A stretch of 64,000 nucleotides of DNA from an uncultured bacterium (GTDB taxonomy: Bacteria > Oederibacteriota > PGYV01 > CAWJRG01): NCBI GenBank assembly GCA_963845185.1, contig CAWJRG010000010.1, forward strand, positions 512,001 through 576,000, read 5' to 3'. This document shows positions 5,289 through 63,074 of the stretch, in pieces. Position 1 is the first letter of the stretch. The number at the start of each line of letters is the position of its first letter. The translations under genes were made by a program, and so were the position numbers. The notes beneath the pieces were generated by a model. That model was given only the letters and a program-made list of their open reading frames with translations. It ran no database searches and had not been told where the DNA came from.

Positions 5289-5317
5289 GTAGAGATGCAG
5301 CAACGCTGCGTCTCTAC
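5289..5317. repeat. GTAG-type REP palindrome
   Basis: GTAGAGATGCAGC-AAC-GCTGCGTCTCTAC, intergenic. Confidence 0.85.
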
Positions 5318-9513: not shown

Positions 9514-9579
9514 GTTAAAAAGTCCTGCGGACTTTTTAACGGGTAGTTTCCATAAGTTATTATAATATAAAAGCTACCC
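9514..9579. repeat. Double-hairpin repeat element, copy 1
   Basis: GTTAAAAAGTCC-TGC-GGACTTTTTAAC followed by GGGTAG...CTACCC; homologous copies at 37915 and 61160. Confidence 0.85.
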
Positions 9580-11901: not shown

Positions 11902-11929
11902 GTAGAGACGTTATGCATAACGTCTCTAC
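11902..11929. repeat. GTAG-type REP palindrome
   Basis: GTAGAGACGTTATGCATAACGTCTCTAC, perfect 28-bp palindrome. Confidence 0.9.
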
Positions 11930-37840: not shown

Positions 37841-37997
37841 GTCATTGCGAGCGACCAGCAGGAGCGAAGCAATCTCGTTTTTGCCTTTAGATGCGGGATT
37901 ATTTCGTCGCTTCGGGGTAGTTTTTATATCCTCTATAACGGACATGATGTAACTACCCGTTAAAAAGTCCACTGGACTTTTTAACTCTCGTAATGAC
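37841..37997. repeat. GTCATTGCGAG-type palindromic element carrying a nested double-hairpin element (copy 2, 37915-37985, inverted)
   Basis: Arms GTCATTGCGAG...GAAGCAATCTC and GATTATTTCGTCGCTTCG[insert]CTCGTAATGAC; uninterrupted half copy at 52421. Confidence 0.8.
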
Positions 37998-38580: not shown

Positions 38581-38608
38581 GTAGAGACGTTTTGCAAAAC
38601 GTCTCTAC
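38581..38608. repeat. GTAG-type REP palindrome
   Basis: GTAGAGACGTTTTGCAAAACGTCTCTAC, perfect palindrome. Confidence 0.9.
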
Positions 38609-45874: not shown

Positions 45875-46736
45875 TCAGACAAGATACTGTGCGAGTTTGT
45901 TGACCCTGTCGTTAAAAAAATCAACACTCCATAATTCCACCGATGGCAGTTCGTGGGGCTTGAGGAAGCGTCTTACGTCGTTCCTTGCTTTTTCCCAGTC
46001 AATTTCAGCCACCTTCTTTCTCAGGTTCTCCACGCACCATGCTTTATCGATTTTTAGATCCTTGTCTTTCCATGGCCCGACCTGGTCGATTGCGGCGGAA
46101 AGCAGCTCAAAATTGATCCCTGCTTTACGGCTCACATACCAGGTGAAATCATACCAGTCCCGGCCTTTCACGTATTCCCTGCATAAAAGAGCGTGGCACT
46201 TACCGGCGAAAAGTGACTCAATATCCTGCACCATGACCTCAAAAACAAAAGGATAATCAAGGTATTTAACCTCGGTTTTTCCTCCCATCGGCGGGTTGGT
46301 ATCAATCTCAGAGCTTGATTTTCACGCTGCGAGTATCCGCTCCGGGCTTAAAATGTTTGAAAGTGATGAGTTTCACGGCTGAATTGTCCTTGATAAACTG
46401 TTTTTGCACTGTCGCATCCGCGTCGCTCCTGTTCCCGAGCGTGAATTTAAAACCATACATTTTCAGTTCCTCGTGCAGGGCGCCTGTGTATTTTTCCAGT
46501 TCAAATTTCTCTCCGGTTTCCGTCAGCACAAAATCGAGGTCCTCTGAAAACCTCTCCATGCCGTAAATGACCCTCAGGCATGTGCCGCCCTGGAATGCGG
46601 CTTTTTTAAAAAACCCGGTGCGGGAAAGTCCGCTCAGCACGATTTCCTGCGCGATTTCCCGGATGGCGTTTTCCTCTTCCTGGGCTGTTTTGCATTCGTA
46701 GGAATCCAGGCGCGACTGGATGATTGAAATATTCAC
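45875..46736 (-). pseudogene. abiEii: AbiEii nucleotidyltransferase toxin split by a +1 frameshift at about 46310
   Basis: FQGGTCLR, RFSEDLDF in the N-part; KCHALL, KGRDWYD in the C-part. Removing one base restores KIKLEIDTNPP. Confidence 0.85.
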
Positions 46737-47365
46737 GCGATAAGCTCCTTTTTGCTTTTTTCGATAAACACTTTTACCCGGCTGTTCTGCGCCGAGTTAT
46801 AAAGCTCCTCAAGCTCCTTAAAATCTGTATTTTTAAAATTTTCCGGGTCGATTCTCAGGTCCTCAACCGCTGGTTTCAGGCCTTTCCATGTTTTCCTGTA
46901 TGCGTAAATGTAGTCTGCAAGCGCGCGCCAGGGCGAAGCCATAAGGAACACTCCGCTTTCATTCTCCACCCTGTCCACACCCGCGAAAAAATTTCTGAAT
47001 TTAACCGGGGTGTAACTAAAAACTCCGACAGGTGTTTTAATTTCTTTGCAGCGTTTAGCAACCGCGCTTGTGACTGTATGCACAGCCTCAGAGATCCATC
47101 CGTGATAAGACAGCGCGGATTCAAAGCTGATATAGGAAGGCCCGTAAAGCATTTGTGCTGCCTGGAAAAGATTTAGGCCCTTTTTACGGTTGTTGTCTCC
47201 GAGAGCATACAGCCCTTTTTTAAGCCGGATAATTTCACCCTGTTTCATCCAGCGTTTTACAAGGCTGTAACGGCTGTCCTCTGTGCCGCTGAGATAATTT
47301 TTTAAAAACGTATCGGTAAAAACATCTCCCGGCACTTTTTCTTTTAATTCATCAATACTATGCAT
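46733..47365 (-). CDS. abiEi: AbiEi-type antitoxin / transcriptional regulator
   Basis: IIRLKKGLY, PSYISFESALSYHGWI, ASPWRALAD; overlaps the toxin gene by 4 bp. Confidence 0.85.
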   Translation of the reverse strand: MHSIDELKEKVPGDVFTDTFLKNYLSGTEDSRYSLVKRWMKQGEIIRLKKGLYALGDNNRKKGLNLFQAAQMLYGPSYISFESALSYHGWISEAVHTVTSAVAKRCKEIKTPVGVFSYTPVKFRNFFAGVDRVENESGVFLMASPWRALADYIYAYRKTWKGLKPAVEDLRIDPENFKNTDFKELEELYNSAQNSRVKVFIEKSKKELIA

Positions 47366-47450
47366 TGATTTTCCACCCATGTTTATTATGTAACATACTG
47401 TCATTTCTACTAATATATAGCATATTAATCAAAATTTTTCAAGTATTTTT

Positions 47451-47485
47451 TGTAAGAAACTGTCAAATAATGACAGTTTTATACA
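47451..47485. promoter_or_regulatory. Inverted repeat, candidate AbiEi operator
   Basis: AAACTGTCA-AATAA-TGACAGTTT with imperfect extension; extra half-site ACTGTCA near 47397. Confidence 0.55.
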
Positions 47486-47539
47486 TAAAATAATAGATAA
47501 ATTAGTCCATTATCCCCGAATTTGTAGAGAGGCGGCTTG

Positions 47540-49153
47540 GAGTCTGTCTCAAAACTCTTTTAAACGCCTTGCATTGCCTACACTTATCGCGTTTTTTAGC
47601 CCCTATCTTTATTATTTCTCTTCTTTTCGATTTGTGGTTCTTTTCTTGTCAGGTTGCGAACCTTAATTTAACCTTACCTTCCCTCCACAAGGCATACATT
47701 GTCTTTATGTTATGGGCGGCGCATATAAAAGACCATTGTGTTTTTACGCTTTCGATTCCTCTAACACTAAATCTTGTAAAACCAAGTACGTTTTTTATAC
47801 GTCCCAATAATGGCTCAACTATTGTTTTTCTCTTTCGAAGCTGTTCTTTCCAGTTATTGACCCTAGCTTCTTCTCTGTATATTGACACTATCTCCTCATA
47901 CTCATGCTTATTTGCTTCTATTATCCTTCCGGATTTTACCTTGCTGCATTCGTATTTATAAATACAATCCCTATGATCCCCGCATCGGTATATCATTGTC
48001 TCTTTTCCGTTTTTCTTCTTCCTTATACTGGTATATTCAAGCCTGCCATTTTTAGGACATACATATTCGTTTTTTTCTTTGTCGTATTTAAAATGCGCTT
48101 TGCCATACGGCCTATCGCTGTCATCCTCCGGCAAGTTAACAATTATATTCCTTTTTTCTTCTTTGGCTTTTGCCAGTTCTTCCGGTGAATAATACCCTCC
48201 ATCCGCAAGCGTTACTCCTGATTTTTGTCCGGTATTCGACTCTGCTTTTTCTATCATATCATTCAGCATGTGAGCATCCGATTCCTTGTTTGTCACATTC
48301 TCTGCCACAATTATCTGTTTCTTTGCGTCCACAACAACCTGTGAGTTATATGCCTGTTGCAGTCCTTTACCTCTTGTCATCATGAACCGGCTGTCTCTAT
48401 CTGTGGGGTTTTCAGTTGTTTTTCCTTCACTTTTCATACGTTCTATATGTTCTCTTATTACCTGACGCAGTTTCTCCTTTTCCTGCAATTCTTTTGGCAT
48501 TCCGCACTTACTTTTGCCCTCTTCATCGTCTTGTTCGTCATTTTTCTCAATTTCCACCATTATTTTGTCTATTTCTCTGTCTAATTCTTGTATTTTTTTA
48601 TTCATGTCTTTTATTGTTTTGGTCTTTTCCTTATTTACATCTGCCTGTATTTTTGTGCCGTCCACGGCTTGAATTTCAAAACCAACCAAATTGTTGTTTG
48701 TTGCCACACGCACCGTCTCCTTCAGTAAAACCCTTATCTGCTCTTTATTTCCTTTAAAAAATCTCCATAGCGTATTATGGTCGGGATGATTATTCCCGGT
48801 TATCCATATCATCCCCATTGAATCGTAAGTCATTTTTTCAACTTTTCTGCTGCTCTTTTTTCCTTCCAGTATGCCGTACATCCATGCCCCAAGTAAAAGA
48901 TCTACAAAATATCCCGGTCTTCCGGTTTCTTCTTCCATTTTAAAACCCATCTCTTCAAGCGGTAATTCTTCTACGAATTCTACGACAAATCGAGCTAAAT
49001 GATCTTTTGAAACCCAATCTTCTATTGCCGGTGGCAGTAGATACATTTGATTTCTATCGGCTCTTATCGTTGGCATTTGGTTTCTCCTTCGCTAAATTTT
49101 GAAACCATTATACCATTTATGTCAAAGAATTAAGAGGCTTTTGAGACAGACTC
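47540..49153 (-). mobile_element. IS1182-family element copy 1 (1614 bp) inserted in a GTAG REP; TSD CTTG
   Basis: IR GAGTCTGTCTCAAAA / TTTTGAGACAGACTC; CTTG at 47536-47539 and 49154-49157. Confidence 0.95.
47649..49076 (-). CDS. IS1182-family DDE transposase
   Basis: LLPPAIEDWV..DHLARFV, SSRKVE, PDHNTL, AVDGTKI, ADGGY, RKTIVEP. Confidence 0.93.
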   Translation of the reverse strand: MPTIRADRNQMYLLPPAIEDWVSKDHLARFVVEFVEELPLEEMGFKMEEETGRPGYFVDLLLGAWMYGILEGKKSSRKVEKMTYDSMGMIWITGNNHPDHNTLWRFFKGNKEQIRVLLKETVRVATNNNLVGFEIQAVDGTKIQADVNKEKTKTIKDMNKKIQELDREIDKIMVEIEKNDEQDDEEGKSKCGMPKELQEKEKLRQVIREHIERMKSEGKTTENPTDRDSRFMMTRGKGLQQAYNSQVVVDAKKQIIVAENVTNKESDAHMLNDMIEKAESNTGQKSGVTLADGGYYSPEELAKAKEEKRNIIVNLPEDDSDRPYGKAHFKYDKEKNEYVCPKNGRLEYTSIRKKKNGKETMIYRCGDHRDCIYKYECSKVKSGRIIEANKHEYEEIVSIYREEARVNNWKEQLRKRKTIVEPLLGRIKNVLGFTRFSVRGIESVKTQWSFICAAHNIKTMYALWREGKVKLRFAT

Positions 49154-49220
49154 CTTGCCCCTTCTCTACAAGAGCGAAATAAAAAAAATCTCCATGCCTT
49201 TCCCTATTCCCTATTCCCGT

Positions 49221-50405
49221 TCATACGCCTTCCCAGGCGTACCTGTATATCTTCATAAGTTTTTCTTTTTCATCCTTATTTCCTTCCATATTTGCCATGC
49301 TCAAATATTTGTCAGCGAATTTTTCGAGCATTTTTTCTTCCACTCCCAAATCCTGCAAATTATCCTTTAAATTAATATCGAGTATAAAATCCTTGAAACC
49401 CACTATGCAGGTTGTTATATACATGCTGTCGTCAACCTTTTCGCATATACCAAAAATCCTTTTTGAAAGCTGTATCACCTTGTCCGGCTTTGTCTCGCCG
49501 AGGTATTTCAGGTAAGCCGGCAGGAGCGCTGCTATACCCGAACCGTGAGCTATATTGTCAAAGTAGCCCGTTATCGCGTGCTCCATCGGGTGCACAACCC
49601 ACGCGCCTGCCCTGCCTGCGTTCGGCAGTCCCATGAGCGCGACCGAGCTTGCGAGCGCAATGTTTGTCCTTGCCTGACTGTCAAACGGGTTCTCAAGTAC
49701 TTTGTACACGTTTTCCATGCAGGTCATTATAATTCCTTCTGTTATCCTGTCCTGCAAATCGCAGTCTGTATCGCCTGTAAAATATTCCTCAAGCACATGC
49801 ATTATTATGTCTATGACGCCTTCTGCCGTAGGTTTCGGCGGTATTGTAAGGGTAAGTTCCGGGTCAAATATGGAAATCTTCGGAAAAAGTTTATCCGGGT
49901 TGTAAATGCCTGCTTTCTCGTTTGTTTTCATGTTTGTAAAAACAGCCGCAGGGTTGCCCTCTGAGCCGCTTGCCGGCAGGGTCGGTATCATAATAATCGG
50001 CAATGCATTACCTATCTGCTTTGCTGTTTTTGAGCCGACAGACATATAATCCCATACCGATCCTCCGCTGCCTGCCACAATGGACGCTCCCTTTGCAGCG
50101 TCCATTGCAGAGCCGCCGCCAAGCCCGATTATGATATCGCAGTTTTCTTTGCTTGCCAGCCCGCCTGCAGCGTCGATCTCCGTGACTTTCGGGTTTGGAG
50201 TAATGTCCGAATAAATCACGAATTTTATACCAGCGGCATCAAGCGATTTTGTCACTTTGTCAAGCGTGCCGGTTTTTTTTACCGAGCTTTTGCCTGTAAT
50301 AATCAGGGCTTTTTTTCCAATGCTTTTAGCTTCTACGCCTGCCCTAGATACTTCTCCAGGCCCGAAAATAAATTTTACCGGGTTATTTAGCGTTATTGTT
50401 CTCAT
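49221..50405 (-). CDS. Iron-containing alcohol dehydrogenase (butanol dehydrogenase-like)
   Basis: GGGSAMDAAK, PTLPASGSE, HPMEH, HGSG. Confidence 0.92.
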   Translation of the reverse strand: MRTITLNNPVKFIFGPGEVSRAGVEAKSIGKKALIITGKSSVKKTGTLDKVTKSLDAAGIKFVIYSDITPNPKVTEIDAAGGLASKENCDIIIGLGGGSAMDAAKGASIVAGSGGSVWDYMSVGSKTAKQIGNALPIIMIPTLPASGSEGNPAAVFTNMKTNEKAGIYNPDKLFPKISIFDPELTLTIPPKPTAEGVIDIIMHVLEEYFTGDTDCDLQDRITEGIIMTCMENVYKVLENPFDSQARTNIALASSVALMGLPNAGRAGAWVVHPMEHAITGYFDNIAHGSGIAALLPAYLKYLGETKPDKVIQLSKRIFGICEKVDDSMYITTCIVGFKDFILDINLKDNLQDLGVEEKMLEKFADKYLSMANMEGNKDEKEKLMKIYRYAWEGV

Positions 50406-50441
50406 TTTTTCCTCCAAGAAAGAGTTTATTTTTTTTCTACA

Positions 50442-50512
50442 GTAGGGGTAATTCACGAATTACCCCGCATTTGTTCTTCATTCGTTTTGGGCGATTCGTG
50501 AATCGCCCCTAC
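50442..50512. repeat. Inverted pair of GTAG-type REPs (BIME/REPIN-like)
   Basis: GTAGGGGTAATTCACGAATTACCCC ... GGGCGATTCGTGAATCGCCCCTAC. Confidence 0.8.
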
Positions 50513-50602
50513 TCTTACCCGCTCAAGCCCGAGGCTTTAGCCCGACGAGCGGTATTAGCATTTTTATTTTACCATAAAAACCGATTTTAAAAACGATATT
50601 AC

Positions 50603-50630
50603 TTGACTTTACCGTTTTATCATATATAAT
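50603..50630 (+). promoter_or_regulatory. Putative sigma70 promoter
   Basis: TTGACT-16bp-TATAAT upstream of 50661. Confidence 0.55.
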
Positions 50631-50660
50631 TGTTATATATTTAATTCAAGGAGGAATCCC

Positions 50661-51464
50661 ATGAAAAGAACAGTGATTTTAATTTTTTCAGCCATTCTTG
50701 TTATTTCCCTTATTTTCAGCTGCAGTTCAAACAAAATCAGCCCAACTTCTCCTATCCAGCAGGTTTCAGCGATGAAGAATGGCTGCCAGCAAACGCCGAC
50801 ACTCACTCCAATAGGGCCTGAACCAATAGGGCCTGAGCACCCGTACCCATATGTACCAACAGCAACTGCGACAGCTATACATGTTTGCCCCGGATCAAAT
50901 ACCAATAATGCCTGTAGTTCAAATCAAGGAAATAAATGCGGCTGGGAAAAACACGATAAATTTACCAAAATGTGCCACATACCGTGCTCTGGCGAGCATG
51001 CCGAGGAGTTGAAATGCCTTGATGTGAACATTGTTATGGAAAATCCATATTTCTATACATCCGACAATTATCCGGGGTATTATATAGGCGACCCGATTAA
51101 TTTCGAAGTGCAAATAACAAATAATGGTAAAAAGGACTTTAAAAATCTTGAAGTCATAACAGTTCAGGAATATCATGATTCAGGAATATGCGACAGATGG
51201 TGGGATCCAAATCCTGAGTTTGTTACTATCACTGCAGGCGAGGCTTTGCCGGGTGACCCAACCACAATATGGAAAGATGTTACATTAAAACCAGGCCAGG
51301 AACTTGTGCTTGACGGCACTTATACCCCGCCTATATCCACATGCTCCGGTCTTGACCAGGTAAGCATTGCGATAAAACACGTTAGCGAATGCTCGCACAG
51401 GATGACAACCATATATTATAACCCGGATGCTACGATTTATTGCCCGCCTCCTCCGGCGAAGTGA
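50661..51464 (+). CDS. Cys-rich hypothetical lipoprotein with Ig-like C-terminal domain
   Basis: AAGGAGG RBS, lipobox IFSC, Pro/Thr linker, INFEVQITNNG strand. Confidence 0.75.
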   Translation: MKRTVILIFSAILVISLIFSCSSNKISPTSPIQQVSAMKNGCQQTPTLTPIGPEPIGPEHPYPYVPTATATAIHVCPGSNTNNACSSNQGNKCGWEKHDKFTKMCHIPCSGEHAEELKCLDVNIVMENPYFYTSDNYPGYYIGDPINFEVQITNNGKKDFKNLEVITVQEYHDSGICDRWWDPNPEFVTITAGEALPGDPTTIWKDVTLKPGQELVLDGTYTPPISTCSGLDQVSIAIKHVSECSHRMTTIYYNPDATIYCPPPPAK

Positions 51465-51515
51465 TAAGCCGGTATATTTACCAGTCTTTTTAATATTTAA
51501 CCGCCAAAAGAGTTA

Positions 51516-52247
51516 TTATTTATAGATATTCTTATCTATCATCCATATCAAATTTTCTTTTGCCTTAACCATGGCTGCCGGGTATTTCTTTTTTGCCTTT
51601 GCAGACGATGCCAGTATTTCCTTCATTATCCCGCCCTTGCCTTTGCCCGCTATAATATAGAGGACGGTTTTTGAGTTATTGATAAAAGGCAGGGTCATAG
51701 TTATTCTGTCGCGTACAGGGGCATAAGACGGGGCTTTAACCGCTATTATCAGCCTCTTTTTTTCGTTTAATGCTTTTTTATCCTTCGGGAAAAGCGAGGA
51801 TGTGTGGCCGTCCGGCCCCATGCCTGCTATTACAAGGTCAAAACTCGGTTTTGTGTTTATATCCTTGAAAAAATTTTTTATAATGTCCTCATAGCTTAAA
51901 GCCGACTTTTTTGCCGGGCTTATTTCATCCGGCGGCGGTATCATAAATACGTTTTCAGGTGGTATTTTTATTTTTGAAAGCATAGCGTCGTATACAAGCT
52001 TAAAATTACTTTTTTCGTCCTTGAAGCTCACATACCTGTCGTCCTGCCAGAATATAAAAACTCTGCTCCAGTCAATCATACATTTTACCAGGTCCCGGTA
52101 TGTTGGCACAGGGTCGCTGCCTCCTGATACAGCAAGCGTAAAATAACCTTTTTGCCTTATAGTTTTTTTTGCCATATCTGTTATCAAACCCGCTGCCTTT
52201 TTGCTCAATGTTTTTAAATTTTCAAAATGCATTGTTTTTGTTTTCAT
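51516..52247 (-). CDS. pgl: 6-phosphogluconolactonase
   Basis: LAVSGG, DDRYV, GMGPDGHTSSLFP, RITMT; start MKTKT. Confidence 0.93.
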   Translation of the reverse strand: MKTKTMHFENLKTLSKKAAGLITDMAKKTIRQKGYFTLAVSGGSDPVPTYRDLVKCMIDWSRVFIFWQDDRYVSFKDEKSNFKLVYDAMLSKIKIPPENVFMIPPPDEISPAKKSALSYEDIIKNFFKDINTKPSFDLVIAGMGPDGHTSSLFPKDKKALNEKKRLIIAVKAPSYAPVRDRITMTLPFINNSKTVLYIIAGKGKGGIMKEILASSAKAKKKYPAAMVKAKENLIWMIDKNIYK

Positions 52248-52276
52248 GTTTTGTCCTTTGTTTTGATTAGGAACAC

Positions 52277-52453
52277 CCTTCCCCCTCGACGGGGGAAGGT
52301 CTGGATGGGGGTGACGTAGCAGCTGAAAGTATCTATTTTTCAAGCATACCCTTTCTCCATTTTGCCGCTACTTCACCCTCTCCTTTTTCCTCTCCCGTCG
52401 AGGGAGAGGAGACCTCTAATATTGCTTCGCTCCATTTGGTCGCTCGCAATGAC
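52277..52453. repeat. Cluster of REP-like palindromes: two CCCTC-CC...GGGAGAGG-type and one half GTCATTGCGAG-type
   Basis: CCTTCCCCCTCGACGGGGGAAGG; TCCTCTCCCGTCGAGGGAGAGGA; ATTGCTTCGCTCCATTTGGTCGCTCGCAATGAC. Confidence 0.75.
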
Positions 52454-52466
52454 AAAATTGCACATC

Positions 52467-54017
52467 TTACACCCAGCTCCTGCCGTCTTTTTTTAAAAGT
52501 TCGTCTGCCTCAACCGGGCCCATGTTTCCTGATTCGTATAATTTCAGGAATTTTTTCCTTTTTTCATTGTTGTTTTCAGCGAGTTCATGCAGAACAGGCG
52601 TAAAAACCGCCCACGATGCCTCAAGCCCGTCCTTGCGCCAGAAAAGTGTTTGGTCCCCGAGCATTACGTCAAGCAAAAGCCCCTCATAATCGTCGATCAG
52701 TTCATAGCCCAGCAAATCCGTGTAATTAAAATCCATTCTCACGGTATTGATGCACGTTTTCGGGCCGGGATGTTTTACCTGTACCACGAGCGATACCCTT
52801 TGTTCAGGCTGTATATAAATCTCAAGTATATTCGACGCAAGTTCTGCTTCAGGTATAGGGCAGAACATGCACCGGAAAATCTTTTTGAAGACAACCGAAA
52901 TTTTTGTGCATTTTTCCCCCATCCTTTTCCCTGTTCTTATGTAAAAAGGCACTCCCTTCCACCTTTCATTGTCTATGAAAAGCCTCATTGCCGCGAAAGT
53001 CTCTGTTTTTGAATCTTTTGAAATGCCCGGTTCGTTTATGTACGCAGCCGCGTCCTTGCCCTGTATTTTCCCTGCTGAATATTGTCCAATTATAATTTCA
53101 TCTGTTTTTAACTGCATTATCGGCTTTATTATTTTTGTTCTCTCGTTTCTTGTGGACTCCGGGTCAAAGGCAGCAGGCGGTTCCATCGCAGTCATTGCCA
53201 CAAGCTGCATCATGTGGCTCTGGCACATGTCTCTTATAATTCCTGTTGTGTCAAAATATCCTGCCCTGTGCTCCACGCCTAGTGTCTCTGCCGCGGTTAT
53301 CTGCACATTGTCTATGTACTTGCTGTTCCACACAGGCTCGAATATTAGATTAGCGAACCTCAAGACAAGCATATTTTGTACTGCCTGTTTGCCCAGGTAA
53401 TGGTCTATCCTGTAAATCTGATCCTCAGAAATGAATTTAAGAAGTTTTTCGTTTAATTCCACTGCTGTATTTAAATCCCTGCCGACAGGCTTTTCAACAA
53501 CCACCCTTTTCCATGCTTTTGGATTTTTCTCCACAAGGCAGCATAAGCCAAGGTGTTCTACTATCCCGGGGTATAAATCCGGCGGAGTCGCAAGGTAATA
53601 AACCATGTTGTCCCCTGTATTGTTTCTGGCGCTTAAGTTGTTTATGTCCTGTTTTAGCCCGTCATAGTCTTTCTGGCTGGCGTAATCTCCGCAGTAATAA
53701 TGGCATTTTTTCGCGAATTCAATCCCTGTCGCGTTGTCAGCGCCGTTTGCGTGCTCCCTCAGGCTGGTTTTCACTCTTTCCCTGAAAGATTCGTCGCTCA
53801 TTTTTGTCCTTGCAAATCCTATAACAAAAAAATTTTCGGGAAGTTGTTTCTTTTTATAAAGGTTGTAAAGCGAGGGTATTAGTTTTCTTTGCGTCAGATC
53901 GCCTGACGCTCCGAATATTGCAAACCCGCATGGCCCGGGCAATTGCTGCTCGCAAAAGACAGGTTCTTTCTGCCCGGTTGCAAAGGGAATTTTGATATTT
54001 AAAAATTCTTTATCCAT
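52467..54017 (-). CDS. zwf: Glucose-6-phosphate 1-dehydrogenase
   Basis: FGASGDL, VEKP, RIDHYLGK, RWKGVPFYIRTGKR. Confidence 0.96.
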   Translation of the reverse strand: MDKEFLNIKIPFATGQKEPVFCEQQLPGPCGFAIFGASGDLTQRKLIPSLYNLYKKKQLPENFFVIGFARTKMSDESFRERVKTSLREHANGADNATGIEFAKKCHYYCGDYASQKDYDGLKQDINNLSARNNTGDNMVYYLATPPDLYPGIVEHLGLCCLVEKNPKAWKRVVVEKPVGRDLNTAVELNEKLLKFISEDQIYRIDHYLGKQAVQNMLVLRFANLIFEPVWNSKYIDNVQITAAETLGVEHRAGYFDTTGIIRDMCQSHMMQLVAMTAMEPPAAFDPESTRNERTKIIKPIMQLKTDEIIIGQYSAGKIQGKDAAAYINEPGISKDSKTETFAAMRLFIDNERWKGVPFYIRTGKRMGEKCTKISVVFKKIFRCMFCPIPEAELASNILEIYIQPEQRVSLVVQVKHPGPKTCINTVRMDFNYTDLLGYELIDDYEGLLLDVMLGDQTLFWRKDGLEASWAVFTPVLHELAENNNEKRKKFLKLYESGNMGPVEADELLKKDGRSWV

Positions 54018-54018
54018 T

Positions 54019-54993
54019 TTATTTTGGTTTTTTATCCGCAGCCGCATGCTTTACTCTGCCCGCGCCTGCATCACTTGTTTTTACGTCTTCGCCTTGTCTT
54101 GCCACTGCATGGCCGCCGAATTCGCGCCTCAGCGCCGCGAGCACCCTGTTGGCGAAAGCATCCTTTTGCCTCGAGTTAAACCTCTTATACAGCGCTGTCG
54201 TTATGACATCCGCGGGTACGCCCGTGTCTATGGCTTCTTTTATGGTCCATCTTGCCTCTCCCGAATCCTCTACAAAACCCTGTATCTCGTCCAGGCCCGA
54301 GTCTTTGTCGAATACATTTTCAAGCAGCTCCAGCAGCCATGAACGCACCACGCTGCCCTGGTTCCATAAATGGGCCACCTGCTGTAAATCGAGCTTGCCT
54401 GCGTAAGGCGATGCCTTTAAAATCTCAAAACCCTCGGCGTACGCTTCCATGAGCCCGTACTCGATGGCATTGTGTATCATCTTTACAAAATGCCCTGCTC
54501 CCGGGCCGCCGCAATACATATACCCGTCTTTCGGCGCCAGGTCTTTTAAAATCGGTTCCATGCGTTTAAAAATTTCTTCCTCGCCGCCCACCATGGTGCA
54601 GTATCCGATTTTAAGCCCCCATATTCCACCGGATACTCCTGCGTCAGCGTAATGTATTCCTGCCTTTTTCAGCTCGTCAAACCTTCTTATGTCTTCCCTG
54701 TATGGCGAGTTGCCGCCTTCAACTATGACGTCACCCTTTGAAAGCAGTTTAACAAGGTCTGCAATATGCTTTTCAGTTACATCCCCTGCCGGCAGCATAA
54801 GCCACACTATCCGCGGGGTTTGCAGTTTCTGTATGAATTCCGCCATAGAATATGCCCCAACAGCACCTTCCTTTTCTATTTCCTTTGTTTTTTCAGCCGT
54901 CCTGTTAAAAGCCACAATATTATGGCCTGCTTTGATGAGCCTTTTTGCCATGTTGCCGCCCATCCTTCCAAGTCCAATCATCCCTAATTGCAT
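54019..54993 (-). CDS. gnd: 6-phosphogluconate dehydrogenase (short type)
   Basis: GLGRMGGNM, GVSGG, HFVKMIHNAIEYG, DSGEARW, FGGH. Confidence 0.95.
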   Translation of the reverse strand: MQLGMIGLGRMGGNMAKRLIKAGHNIVAFNRTAEKTKEIEKEGAVGAYSMAEFIQKLQTPRIVWLMLPAGDVTEKHIADLVKLLSKGDVIVEGGNSPYREDIRRFDELKKAGIHYADAGVSGGIWGLKIGYCTMVGGEEEIFKRMEPILKDLAPKDGYMYCGGPGAGHFVKMIHNAIEYGLMEAYAEGFEILKASPYAGKLDLQQVAHLWNQGSVVRSWLLELLENVFDKDSGLDEIQGFVEDSGEARWTIKEAIDTGVPADVITTALYKRFNSRQKDAFANRVLAALRREFGGHAVARQGEDVKTSDAGAGRVKHAAADKKPK

Positions 54994-55021
54994 ATGTGCC
55001 TCCATTTTTTGTCTTTTATTT

Positions 55022-55049
55022 GTAGAGACACGCCATGGCGTGTCTCTAC
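55022..55049. repeat. GTAG-type REP palindrome (empty IS1182 target)
   Basis: GTAGAGACACGCCATGGCGTGTCTCTAC. Confidence 0.92.
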
Positions 55050-57049
55050 TTTAAATTTAAAATCTTCATTACCTTTTCAACGACATTCTCAACTGTAAAC
55101 CCGTATTTTTCCATTACTATCTCGCCCGGCGCAGACGCGCCGAACTTATCCACGCCTATCACGCAGCCTTCATCGCCTGCCAGGCCTTTCCAGAAATATG
55201 GCGAGCCTGCTTCTATTATAACACGCTTTTTTATTACCGAAGGTATCACGCTTTCCATGTATTGTTCTGATTGTTCCATGAATATTTCGTATGAAGGCAT
55301 TGATACGACCCTTGCTTTTATTTTTTTTGCTTTTAATTTTTCATACGCGCCAAGAGCCAGATGAACTTCAGAGCCTGTCGCAATCAGGATAACATCCGGC
55401 TTATCGCCCGCATCCAGAAGGATATATGCGCCCTTTTCTAAATTTTCAAATATTTTATATTTTTCAAAATCAAGCACAGGCAGATTTTGCCTGGTAAGGC
55501 AGAGTGCTATGGGCCTTTTATTTGCTATAGCATAATTCCACGCAGCCGAAGTCTCGTTTGCGTCAGCCGGCCTTATCACGGTCATGCCGGGTATCATGCG
55601 CAGCGAAGAAAGCTGCTCCACGGGCTGGTGCGTGGGCCCGTCCTGGCCCAGGCCTATGCTGTCGTGAGTAAAAATAAATATCGAGTGGGTTTTCATCAGA
55701 GCAGCAAGCCTTATGGCAGGCCGCATGTAATCGGAAAAAATCAGGAAAGTCGCGCAGTAAGGTATCAAACCGCCGTGAAGCGCGATGCCGTTTGTAATGG
55801 CTCCCATTGCGTGCTCGCGCACGCCGAAATGCATATTCCTCGCGCATCCGCTTGCCACGCCTATATCTCCGTAGCCGTGAAGCAGTGTTTTTGTAGACGG
55901 GCTCAAGTCAGCCGAGCCTCCCATGAATTCAGTCATGTATTTCTCTATGTTATTCATGACTTTTTCCGAAGCAACCCTTGTAGATACAGGCCCGTCCTTT
56001 GGGAAAAATTCCAGAAAATTTTCCGTCAGTTTCCTGTTCACGCGGCCTTCCATGTATTTGTTTAAAAGCTCAACCTGTTCCGGGTTATTTTTCCTGTATT
56101 TTTCCACAAGCTCGTGCCAGTTCTTTACTTTTTCATCAGTATCTGACTCAAGCCGTTTAAAATGCGCGTAAACTTCTTCCGGCACAAAAAAACTTTTATC
56201 AGCCGGCCAGCCGAATTTTTCCTTTGTTTCTTTCACGCCTTCTTCTCCCAGGGGCTCGCCATGCGCCGCGCCTGTATCCTGTTTTGGTGAACCAAATCCT
56301 ATGTGCGTGCGAACTATTATGAGCGAAGGTTTTTGTTTTTCCCCTCTTGCTTCTTCTAATGCTTTTGCTATGTCCTCAATGTCGTTCCCGTCTGCAATTT
56401 TAATTGTTTGCCAGCCGTATGCGTCAAAACGCTCAGCAACGTTTTCGCCGAAAGTAATCGAAGTATCGCCTTCTATTGATACATGGTTTTCGTCGTAAAG
56501 GTAAATGAGTTTCCCTAGTTTCATTGTGCCTGCAAGCGACGCGGCTTCAGAAGATATCCCTTCCATCAGGTCGCCGTCAGACACAATAGCGTAGGTATAA
56601 TGGTCTATTATTTTTAAATCAGGCGTGTTAAAGCAGTCCCCCAGCACTTTTTCAGCTATTGCCATGCCCACACCCATGCCAAAACCCTGGCCAAGCGGCC
56701 CTGTCGTGGCTTCGATTCCGGGCGTAAGCCCGTATTCGGGATGGCCCGGTGTTATGCTGCCATACTGCCTGAACTTTTTCAGGTCGTCCATTGTAATGCC
56801 ATAACCGTATAAGTGTAAAAGTGAATATAACAGCGCACAGCCGTGTCCTGCTGAAAGTATGAACCTGTCCCTGTCCACCCATTTCGGGTTTTCAGGTGAG
56901 TGTTTTAAAAATTTGGAAAATAAGACATAAGCCATGGGCGCTGCGCCAAGCGGCATGCCAGGATGCCCTGACTTTGCCTTTTCCACCATGTCTATGGAAA
57001 GCATGCGTAAAGTATTTATGCAAAGCTCGTCAATATTGTTTTCAGCCAT
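55046..57049 (-). CDS. tkt: Transketolase
   Basis: SGHPG, DRDRFILSAGH, GDLMEGIS, FGVREH, DGPTHQPVEQ; start MAENN. Confidence 0.97.
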   Translation of the reverse strand: MAENNIDELCINTLRMLSIDMVEKAKSGHPGMPLGAAPMAYVLFSKFLKHSPENPKWVDRDRFILSAGHGCALLYSLLHLYGYGITMDDLKKFRQYGSITPGHPEYGLTPGIEATTGPLGQGFGMGVGMAIAEKVLGDCFNTPDLKIIDHYTYAIVSDGDLMEGISSEAASLAGTMKLGKLIYLYDENHVSIEGDTSITFGENVAERFDAYGWQTIKIADGNDIEDIAKALEEARGEKQKPSLIIVRTHIGFGSPKQDTGAAHGEPLGEEGVKETKEKFGWPADKSFFVPEEVYAHFKRLESDTDEKVKNWHELVEKYRKNNPEQVELLNKYMEGRVNRKLTENFLEFFPKDGPVSTRVASEKVMNNIEKYMTEFMGGSADLSPSTKTLLHGYGDIGVASGCARNMHFGVREHAMGAITNGIALHGGLIPYCATFLIFSDYMRPAIRLAALMKTHSIFIFTHDSIGLGQDGPTHQPVEQLSSLRMIPGMTVIRPADANETSAAWNYAIANKRPIALCLTRQNLPVLDFEKYKIFENLEKGAYILLDAGDKPDVILIATGSEVHLALGAYEKLKAKKIKARVVSMPSYEIFMEQSEQYMESVIPSVIKKRVIIEAGSPYFWKGLAGDEGCVIGVDKFGASAPGEIVMEKYGFTVENVVEKVMKILNLK

Positions 57050-57096
57050 TTTTATACCACCGACTCTATATTTTTTAATTGTAGAGACACGCCATG

Positions 57097-58710
57097 GAGT
57101 CTGTCTCAAAACTCTTTTAAACGCCTTGCATTGCCTACACTTATCGCGTTTTTTAGCCCCTATCTTTATTATTTCTCTTCTTTTCGATTTGTGGTTCTTT
57201 TCTTGTCAGGTTGCGAACCTTAATTTAACCTTACCTTCCCTCCACAAGGCATACATTGTCTTTATGTTATGGGCGGCGCATATAAAAGACCATTGTGTTT
57301 TTACGCTTTCGATTCCTCTAACACTAAATCTTGTAAAACCAAGTACGTTTTTTATACGTCCCAATAATGGCTCAACTATTGTTTTTCTCTTTCGAAGCTG
57401 TTCTTTCCAGTTATTGACCCTAGCTTCTTCTCTGTATATTGACACTATCTCCTCATACTCATGCTTATTTGCTTCTATTATCCTTCCGGATTTTACCTTG
57501 CTGCATTCGTATTTATAAATACAATCCCTATGATCCCCGCATCGGTATATCATTGTCTCTTTTCCGTTTTTCTTCTTCCTTATACTGGTATATTCAAGCC
57601 TGCCATTTTTAGGACATACATATTCGTTTTTTTCTTTGTCGTATTTAAAATGCGCTTTGCCATACGGCCTATCGCTGTCATCCTCCGGCAAGTTAACAAT
57701 TATATTCCTTTTTTCTTCTTTGGCTTTTGCCAGTTCTTCCGGTGAATAATACCCTCCATCCGCAAGCGTTACTCCTGATTTTTGTCCGGTATTCGACTCT
57801 GCTTTTTCTATCATATCATTCAGCATGTGAGCATCCGATTCCTTGTTTGTCACATTCTCTGCCACAATTATCTGTTTCTTTGCGTCCACAACAACCTGTG
57901 AGTTATATGCCTGTTGCAGTCCTTTACCTCTTGTCATCATGAACCGGCTGTCTCTATCTGTGGGGTTTTCAGTTGTTTTTCCTTCACTTTTCATACGTTC
58001 TATATGTTCTCTTATTACCTGACGCAGTTTCTCCTTTTCCTGCAATTCTTTTGGCATTCCGCACTTACTTTTGCCCTCTTCATCGTCTTGTTCGTCATTT
58101 TTCTCAATTTCCACCATTATTTTGTCTATTTCTCTGTCTAATTCTTGTATTTTTTTATTCATGTCTTTTATTGTTTTGGTCTTTTCCTTATTTACATCTG
58201 CCTGTATTTTTGTGCCGTCCACGGCTTGGATTTCAAAACCAACCAAATTGTTGTTTGTTGCCACACGCACCGTCTCCTTCAGTAAAACCCTTATCTGCTC
58301 TTTATTTCCTTTAAAAAATCTCCATAGCGTATTATGGTCGGGATGATTATTCCCGGTTATCCATATCATCCCCATTGAATCGTAAGTCATTTTTTCAACT
58401 TTTCTGCTGCTCTTTTTTCCTTCCAGTATGCCGTACATCCATGCCCCAAGTAAAAGATCTACAAAATATCCCGGTCTTCCGGTTTCTTCTTCCATTTTAA
58501 AACCCATCTCTTCAAGCGGTAATTCTTCTACGAATTCTACGACAAATCGAGCTAAATGATCTTTTGAAACCCAATCTTCTATTGCCGGTGGCAGTAGATA
58601 CATTTGATTTCTATCGGCTCTTATCGTTGGCATTTGGTTTCTCCTTCGCTAAATTTTGAAACCATTATACCATTTATGTCAAAGAATTAAGAGGCTTTTG
58701 AGACAGACTC
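57097..58710 (-). mobile_element. IS1182-family element copy 2 (1614 bp) inserted in a GTAG REP; TSD CATG
   Basis: Same IRs as copy 1; flanks GTAGAGACACGC-CATG and CATG-GCGTGTCTCTAC. Confidence 0.95.
57206..58633 (-). CDS. IS1182-family DDE transposase (protein identical to copy 1)
   Basis: Identical 475-aa translation; one synonymous difference noticed (about 48672 vs 58229). Confidence 0.93.
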   Translation of the reverse strand: MPTIRADRNQMYLLPPAIEDWVSKDHLARFVVEFVEELPLEEMGFKMEEETGRPGYFVDLLLGAWMYGILEGKKSSRKVEKMTYDSMGMIWITGNNHPDHNTLWRFFKGNKEQIRVLLKETVRVATNNNLVGFEIQAVDGTKIQADVNKEKTKTIKDMNKKIQELDREIDKIMVEIEKNDEQDDEEGKSKCGMPKELQEKEKLRQVIREHIERMKSEGKTTENPTDRDSRFMMTRGKGLQQAYNSQVVVDAKKQIIVAENVTNKESDAHMLNDMIEKAESNTGQKSGVTLADGGYYSPEELAKAKEEKRNIIVNLPEDDSDRPYGKAHFKYDKEKNEYVCPKNGRLEYTSIRKKKNGKETMIYRCGDHRDCIYKYECSKVKSGRIIEANKHEYEEIVSIYREEARVNNWKEQLRKRKTIVEPLLGRIKNVLGFTRFSVRGIESVKTQWSFICAAHNIKTMYALWREGKVKLRFAT

Positions 58711-58762
58711 CATGGCGTGTCTCTACTTTAACTGTCCTTATGAAAATATCGTGGGATAATCG

Positions 58763-61159: not shown

Positions 61160-61223
61160 GTCAAATAGTCCTGTGGACTATTTGACGGGTAGTCTCCATA
61201 AGTTATCATAATAAAAGCTACCC
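61160..61223. repeat. Double-hairpin repeat element, copy 3
   Basis: GTCAAATAGTCC-TGT-GGACTATTTGAC followed by GGGTAG...CTACCC. Confidence 0.85.
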
Positions 61224-63046: not shown

Positions 63047-63074
63047 GTAGAGACACGCCATGGCGTGTCTCTAC
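63047..63074. repeat. GTAG-type REP palindrome (empty IS1182 target)
   Basis: GTAGAGACACGCCATGGCGTGTCTCTAC. Confidence 0.92.

Follow-up and report, generated by a model that had tools for sequence, protein, structure and literature searches.

How does an insertion sequence (IS) come to lie at the exact centre of a repetitive palindrome, and what does its transposase recognise there? The question is raised by a 64,000-nucleotide stretch from an uncultured bacterium of the phylum Oederibacteriota (CAWJRG010000010.1, here G000:C10:512001-576000 and called the window; G000 is the 3.5-Mb source genome), in which two 1614-bp copies of an IS1182-family element each split a 28-bp palindrome at its centre. 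A first-pass annotation of the window had interpreted this arrangement as targeting of repetitive extragenic palindromes (REPs), and its description of the two split palindromes proved correct to the base. Across the source genome, every one of the 14 full-length copies of the element is inserted precisely on the dyad of a palindrome that fits RGAGA-N5-CNNG-N5-TCTCY. As judged from sequence comparison, integration directed to the palindrome centre by this motif is very probably the best explanation of the pattern.

The assignment to IS1182 made in the first-pass annotation stands. The 475-residue transposase matches the curated NCBIfam model NF033551 (transpos_IS1182) over residues 6-462, scoring 354 bits where the cut-off is 270 (E 1.4e-105), and combines the domains PF05598 (DUF772, N-terminal; E 7e-11), DDE_Tnp_1 and PF13751 (DDE_Tnp_1_6, C-terminal; E 2.6e-21). 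Three residues that are invariant in four transposases of 31-76% identity, D139, D292 and E421, are likely by position to form the DDE triad. This single open reading frame (ORF) lies between 15-bp perfect inverted repeats (GAGTCTGTCTCAAAA ... TTTTGAGACAGACTC), and the element is dispersed in many copies, of which the two in the window are 99.9% identical to each other. To the left of copy 2 stands GTAGAGACACGC-CATG and to its right CATG-GCGTGTCTCTAC, and removal of the IS with one CATG restores exactly, as had been claimed, the 28-bp palindrome that stands empty at 55022 and 63047. The flanks of copy 1 are GTAGAGAGGCGG-CTTG and CTTG-CCCCTTCTCTAC. Contigs from one DNA sequencing run that contained 0.22 of the sampled words match 46500-50200 in five short pieces, none of which joins across copy 1.

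BLAST recovered from the source genome 14 full-length copies at 99.75-100% identity and one truncated copy. At all 14 sites of full copies GAGA occupies positions -13 to -10 of the left arm, TCTC mirrors it on the right and the centre reads C-N-N-G; the central 4 bp are duplicated in direct orientation in 12 of them. Seven copies share the palindrome of copy 2 (class A, GTAGAGACACGC-CATG / CATG-GCGTGTCTCTAC) and three that of copy 1 (class B, GTAGAGAGGCGG-CTTG / CTTG-CCCCTTCTCTAC). Three more occupy REP-B-like sites, all on contig C9 (Table 1), and the last has entered a single-copy terminator-like hairpin (AAAGAGACGGGA-CCAG / CCAG-TGCCGTCTCTTT) with an A-tract before it, a T-tract after it and convergent ORFs on either side. 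Insertion at the palindrome centre, as proposed for the two window copies, is therefore borne out by 14 of 14. The accompanying suggestion to inspect the flanks of every copy and of homologues returned a more varied picture: 13 copies and a relative in genome G014 lie in REP-type palindromes, which in those 13 copies are GAGA-armed, but one copy lies in the motif-bearing terminator-like hairpin and a relative in genome G006 has arms without GAGA. The position of the insertion is identical in all 14.

No ORF of at least 100 amino acids runs across any of the 14 reconstructed sites, and all the sites are intergenic. In this respect the earlier idea of an intergenic safe harbour holds, but the sites are often only 10-50 nt from gene ends, inside runs of same-strand genes, where polar effects of the IS on its neighbours are possible, and their safety may at most be presumed. 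Intergenic placement would also result from random insertion followed by selection, with survival in REPs only. Such a filter, however, cannot bring 14 of 14 copies to one and the same phosphodiester pair within a 28-bp palindrome; insertions elsewhere between genes would be just as neutral, and the copies, being near-identical, are recent. We regard this explanation as exceedingly unlikely.

Are the palindrome halves target DNA, or do they travel with the IS? In the latter case the element would measure ~1646 bp with ~31-bp inverted repeats, and empty REPs would be footprints or solo ends left after excision of the inner IS. The seven copies with identical halves and the three with another identical pair agree with this, as do the lack of an empty class-B palindrome in the source genome and a Pfam search that found no REP-associated tyrosine transposase (RAYT) there. 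Identical halves on every copy had been named in the first-pass annotation as the sign of such an element; 10 of the 14 copies do fall into two identical classes, but the remainder bring the number of flank types around near-identical IS copies to six, one of them the unique terminator-like hairpin. Moreover, the copies vary at eight positions only, and the haplotypes so defined are shared between flank classes: class-A, class-B and terminator-type sites all contain the consensus haplotype, and a second one is present in class A and at two REP-B-like sites. Direct repeats outside the 28-bp palindrome show no excess (at least 3 nt in 4 of 28, against 3.8 in shuffles), and a composite of REP and IS moving together with outer duplications was not seen.

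Empty palindromes point the same way. Class A is present as 15 exact and six one- or two-base variant empty copies, each with a single centre, and the general motif RGAGA-N5-CNNG-N5-TCTCY is found empty 21 times in 3.5 Mb, where base composition predicts ~2, which excludes chance. The motif also occurs 24, 27 and 52 times in the genomes G002, G019 and G023, where a search for relatives of this IS found none, against 0-3 for a reversed-pattern control; empty REP-B types in IS-free related genomes include AGAGAGGCGGCTTGCTGCCTCTCT and AGAGAGGCGGCAAGCCCCCTCTCT. To these can be added the REP-flanked RAYT-like genes of G000, G019 and G021 described below. From the empty copies, the crossing of haplotypes, the absence of outer repeats, the palindromes of IS-free genomes and the RAYT link we conclude that the flanking halves are, on sequence grounds, target DNA; that they belong to the element is very unlikely.

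The class-A repeat has the hallmarks of a REP: it is a short, stable, multicopy and extragenic palindrome that flanks a Y1/HUH RAYT-like gene. Its 15 exact empty, six variant empty and seven filled sites lie outside long ORFs, save for overlaps with a few opposite-strand ORFs that are probably spurious and for one site inside a RAYT-like gene. Folded as DNA (12-bp stem, 4-nt loop), the repeat yields -13.4 kcal/mol (z -9.6) at 55022 and -16.5 kcal/mol (z -10.5) at 63047. The RAYT-like gene (C1:234014-234571), closely preceded by a class-A variant and followed by a class-A REP that an IS copy occupies, encodes 185 amino acids with the HUH motif PNHMHG and YDHIIR, and scores 53 bits against NCBIfam REP_Tyr_transpos (E 2.8e-14; cut-off 80). 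The RAYT-like proteins remain below this cut-off, at 53-73 bits. A homologous HUH/Y1 gene for 174 amino acids in G019 and G021 lies 60-105 bp from an empty REP-B-type repeat, and its best family is again the REP-associated tyrosine transposase (E 3e-15 to 3e-17, below cut-off). The search of the source genome with Pfam Y1_Tnp had given 0 matches; since two RAYT-like genes were later found there by protein search with a relative's gene, this negative is a sensitivity miss. The probable cause is a Pfam score depressed by insertions within the genes, which calls for caution in RAYT surveys. In the C1 gene, a complete class-A REP (C1:234271-234298) lies in frame just past the HUH motif and codes for VETRHGVSLQ. 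The second RAYT-like gene (C5:416745-417438) has an insertion of ~70 amino acids at the same position, made up of REP-like palindromes (GTAGAGACGGGGCTCTGTCCCCGTCT...), and the relatives in G019 and G021 carry no internal REP insertion.

The choice among palindromes bears on what the transposase reads. Two possibilities had been raised in the first-pass annotation, GTAGAGA arms at a fixed distance or the hairpin itself, and neither is sufficient. Besides class A, the source genome holds 22 further GTAGAGA...TCTCTAC REPs, all empty, as against 7 of 28 class-A sites occupied (Fisher p = 0.014). Ten of the 22 are of the GTAGAGACGTTT-TGCA-AAACGTCTCTAC type, with the same spacing (p = 0.16 when these alone are compared with class A), and 12 have a 15-nt interior; one natural REP left unoccupied is GTAGAGACGTTTTGCAAAACGTCTCTAC. 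The GT head is dispensable, with occupied sites also starting AAAGAGA, GCAGAGA, AGAGAGA and CCGGAGA.

As to the hairpin, targeting in this element could be purely structural, any stable hairpin or cruciform being accepted and REPs being merely the commonest strong ones. There is precedent in IS1272 and TnSha1, which, in the passages of PMC4923244 and PMC5678879 dealing with targets, choose hairpins with little conservation of primary sequence; the strong folding of class-A REPs would fit as well, as would the unrelated palindromes occupied by the G006 relative and by a second IS1182-family element of the source genome. When comparable palindromes are defined by 12-nt arms with at least 10 of 12 positions paired and a 4-nt centre, however, the source genome has 426 empty ones, of which 35 have GAGA in register, 47 a CNNG centre and only 23 both. 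The 403 others attracted none of the 14 insertions, each of which has both features. A sequence-blind transposase would meet the motif with a probability of (23+14)/(426+14), ~0.084, per insertion, or ~6e-4 over three independent target families (class A, REP-B-like and terminator-type). The 22 unoccupied GTAGAGA REPs, whose stems are equally long, and two occupied sites that keep the motif on a poor stem (below) also speak against a structural rule, which we consider distinctly unlikely. The recognised motif can accordingly be refined to a putative bipartite and symmetric one, GAGA arms plus a C-NN-G centre. A further candidate, mimicry of the IS ends by target arms (both have GAGAC/GTCTC), was set aside as a weak lead: the registers agree only under a 16-bp inverted repeat, and the likeness is absent in G006.

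Searches at the level of the class and of the phylum yielded no relatives other than those of G014 and G006: of the 99 phylum genomes, 3 have a match to the transposase at E <=1e-90, the source genome included. The IS of G014 (76% amino acid identity, same inverted repeat) is inserted in GAGAGGGGG-CAAG / CAAG-CCCCCTCTC, and a REP of this type stands empty ~60 bp away. That of G006 (47%, inverted repeat GAGACTGTCTCAAAAC) is inserted in CGCGAAC-TGAA / TGAA-GTTCGCG. Insertion at the apex with a 4-bp duplication is thus conserved, but the arm sequence is not. A wider scan of genome contigs with the transposase gave only two distant matches (25-33% identity), which were not used. Scanning of metagenomes with the right-end pattern returned eight loci; a related transposase was present only at L045, where the flanks match those of the G014 copy, and the other seven had neither a left end nor a transposase. 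The relatives also help with the element boundary, which had been called ambiguous by 1 bp. Both readings fit the window copies, but the comparison with G006 separates them: under a 4-bp duplication both elements start 5'-GAG, and under a 2-bp duplication the additional end base, G for one element and A for the other, changes along with the target, which favours the former. As the relatives indicate, a 15-bp inverted repeat with a 4-bp duplication is probably the true boundary.

The second IS1182-family element of the source genome is ~1630 bp long, with the inverted repeat CAGACTGTGTCATAA and a transposase 32% identical to that of the first. It too is palindrome-centred, with 3-bp duplications, in targets such as CCACGGGC-GAT / GAT-GCCCGTGG and CCTCC...GGAGG types, and the two co-resident members go to different sets of palindromes.

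Several observations weigh against motif-directed integration in its simplest form. The GAGA-less arms of the G006 relative mean that the motif is no clade-wide rule. Beyond showing a preference for this REP, the seven class-A insertions do not count as independent evidence of sequence reading, which leaves about three clearly independent target families. No empty class-B palindrome was found in the source genome, either exact or within six mismatches, and the three occupied class-B sites have identical, imperfectly paired halves; the status of class B as a target therefore rests on similar, non-identical empty palindromes in other genomes, such as GTAGAGAGGGGGCTTGCCCCCTCTC, ~60 bp from the G014 copy. 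Pairing is limited to 8 of 12 arm positions at two of the occupied REP-B-like sites, X and Z, so that a good hairpin is not strictly required. In spite of their poor pairing, both sites keep GAGA/TCTC and C..G, so that sequence seems to weigh at least as much as stem quality in the choice of target. Finally, 2 of the 14 copies lack a direct duplication and show the central 4-mer inverted instead, as CAAG / CTTG (C9:5406-7019) and CTTG / CAAG (C9:604166-605779). The first-pass interpretation as a whole is partly supported: it is right for the most part, with some points in need of refinement.

The arms at the two inverted-4-mer sites resemble natural partners, and the second element has inverted central n-mers in three of its nine full copies (C10:62273, C9:832707 and C11:39921), for example AAA / TTT and TTC / GAA. 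Possible origins are a swapping of flanks, through deletion or recombination between IS copies, a conversion that turned the 31-nt quasi-palindromic ends into a perfect inverted repeat, or a feature of cruciform integration. Inversion of 600 kb between two oppositely oriented copies on C9 found no support in the GC skew, which is uniformly positive over 0-730 kb, and blunt insertion into REPs with the 8-nt centre CWWGCWWG was discarded, as the 24 genomes of the order contain no site of this kind. We know of no description of a cruciform-integration signature, or of quasi-palindromic end conversion, for a DDE IS. A broader proposal would unite these features: IS1182 transposases would read a short, fast-diverging bipartite code set out symmetrically on a palindrome, co-resident members would partition the palindrome families (here GAGA...CNNG...TCTC with a 4-bp duplication for the first element, and CCACGG/CCTCC palindromes with a 3-bp duplication for the second), and the inverted n-mers could reflect cruciform integration or end conversion. 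It remains tentative, and we think it rather improbable.

Under motif-directed integration, a recently active IS1182-family element would use its DDE transposase to integrate across the central CNNG of RGAGA-N5-CNNG-N5-TCTCY. After a 4-bp staggered cut, each end of the IS would abut one copy of the 4-bp centre, the hairpin loop. Since palindromes of this form in the source genome are mostly class-A REPs, an independent repeat family flanking a RAYT-like tyrosine-transposase gene, REPs would supply the majority of landing sites; a terminator-like hairpin present once in the genome shares the motif and is also used. The transposase complex may be symmetric (dimeric) and read the GAGA/TCTC arms at a set spacing from the dyad, with either duplex or extruded cruciform DNA as its substrate, and the IS might benefit from plentiful, gene-sparing sites.

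The set of copies has further features of its own. Two same-orientation copies lie 36 bp apart in adjacent REP-B-like palindromes (C9:604166-607429). Decay is visible in the copy at C5:41091-42704, with two in-frame TGA codons in the transposase gene, and in that at C6:25533-26983, which is 5'-truncated (first 163 bp missing). In 12 of 15 copies the transposase is encoded by the G-rich strand, presumably the leading one, and one of the three exceptions has a local skew of ~0; given the symmetric target, this bias suggests either that copies oriented like the adjacent genes are selected or that target capture is strand-specific. REP-like families are many in the source genome. At C5:33868-33920, the class-B left half runs into a longer palindrome (GAGAGGCGGCTTGCCATG ... 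CATGGCTTGCGGCCTCTC) and not into an IS, and a GTACAGAC...GTCTGTAC palindrome lies just upstream. The window itself has a further family at 9514-9540, 37959-37985 and 61160-61186, two copies being GTTAAAAAGTCC-NNN-GGACTTTTTAAC and a similar one GTCAAATAGTCC-TGT-GGACTATTTGAC.

Table 1. Features of the window (window positions), REP-B-like sites and loci of the second IS1182-family element (contig positions of the source genome)
Feature	Location	Strand	Remarks
IS copy 1	47540..49153	+	1614 bp
IS copy 1, left inverted repeat	47540-47554		GAGTCTGTCTCAAAA
IS copy 1, right inverted repeat	49139-49153		TTTTGAGACAGACTC
Copy 1 transposase gene	47649..49076	-	475 amino acids, IS1182 family, DUF772 + DDE_Tnp_1_6
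Class-B REP left half GTAGAGAGGCGG and first central CTTG	47524..47539	+	same half at 3 genomic IS copies
Second CTTG and class-B REP right half CCCCTTCTCTAC	49154..49169	+	
IS copy 2	57097..58710	+	1614 bp, single nucleotide difference from copy 1
Copy 2 transposase gene	57206..58633	-	475 amino acids
Class-A REP left half and first CATG	57081..57096	+	
Second CATG and class-A REP right half	58711..58726	+	
Empty class-A REP GTAGAGACACGCCATGGCGTGTCTCTAC	55022..55049	.	12-bp stem, 4-nt centre; between two minus-strand ORFs
Empty class-A REP	63047..63074	.	identical to 55022-55049
Unoccupied GTAGAGA...TCTCTAC REPs	5289-5317, 11902-11929, 38581-38608		one with 15-nt interior, two with TGCA centre
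REP-B-like site	C9		GCAGAGATGCGG-CTTG / CTTG-CTGCCTCTCGTA
REP-B-like site	C9		AGAGAGAGGCAG-CAAG / CTTG-CCGCCTCTCTAC
REP-B-like site	C9		CCGGAGAAGGAG-CTTG / CAAG-CCCCTTCTCTAC
Second element	C5:708742-710371		
Second element	C10:60644-62273		
Second element	C10:72401-74030		
Second element	C9:498201-499830		
Second element	C9:831078-832707		
Second element	C1:81820-83449		
Second element	C11:41430-43056		
Second element	C11:38295-39921		
Second element	C6:134328-135954		

These insertions form an unusually clean natural data set on target choice in IS1182: 14 near-identical copies can be set against 21 empty sites and several hundred unused control palindromes, and two relatives have different arms. 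They suggest a compact target motif for a site-specific DDE transposase, without a new class of mechanism, and may aid the annotation of REP/IS junctions in uncultured lineages. Within the literature searched, they add IS1182 to the IS families that colonise REPs: the full texts covered, few of them from subscription journals, contain no report of a REP-specific IS1182-family element.

Among known systems, the element has the profile of a REP-targeting IS such as IS1397, with most copies in REPs, a fixed position and empty sites present. IS1397 and ISKpn1 enter the loop of the REP, where they generate a short duplication. Both are, likewise, DDE elements in REP palindromes, but their transposase family, hosts and REP families differ from those described here; they belong to the IS3 family and are presented in PMC1525189 as REP- and BIME-specific (BIME, bacterial interspersed mosaic element) in enterobacteria. 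The same survey (Tobes and Pareja 2006) attributes REP targeting to five families, IS3, IS110, IS4, IS256 and IS5, and IS1182 is nowhere mentioned in it. The IS110-family elements IS621, ISPpu9 and ISPpu10 are REP-specific too (ISPpu9 is placed in REPs by PMC12288879), but they have a DEDD recombinase and no inverted repeats. REP/RAYT (REPIN) systems resemble the target only and not the IS, in that they comprise GTAG-headed, extragenic, multicopy palindromes flanking a HUH/Y1 RAYT-like gene.

The closest comparison is with the staphylococcal IS1272 and TnSha1/TnSha2, which share the transposase family and also take inverted-repeat or hairpin targets, often terminators downstream of genes, according to the sections of PMC5678879 and PMC4923244 on these elements; both articles cite Siguier et al. 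2015 for the targeting of palindromic sequences by some IS1182 members. As the same sections have it, IS1272, like TnSha1, deletes or replaces part or all of the stem-loop, with no target duplication and no primary-sequence preference. Here, in contrast, both arms are kept, the 4-nt centre is duplicated, GAGA...CNNG...TCTC is common to the sites and the stem-loop is not replaced. This outcome corresponds to pathway c in the legend to Fig. 13 of Wan et al. (PMC5678879), a hypothetical duplication of the loop only, so that what the authors of the IS1272 work had drawn as a hypothesis is now seen in a genome. The class of mechanism is already known; what differs here is apex insertion with duplication of the loop, combined with evident sequence selectivity.

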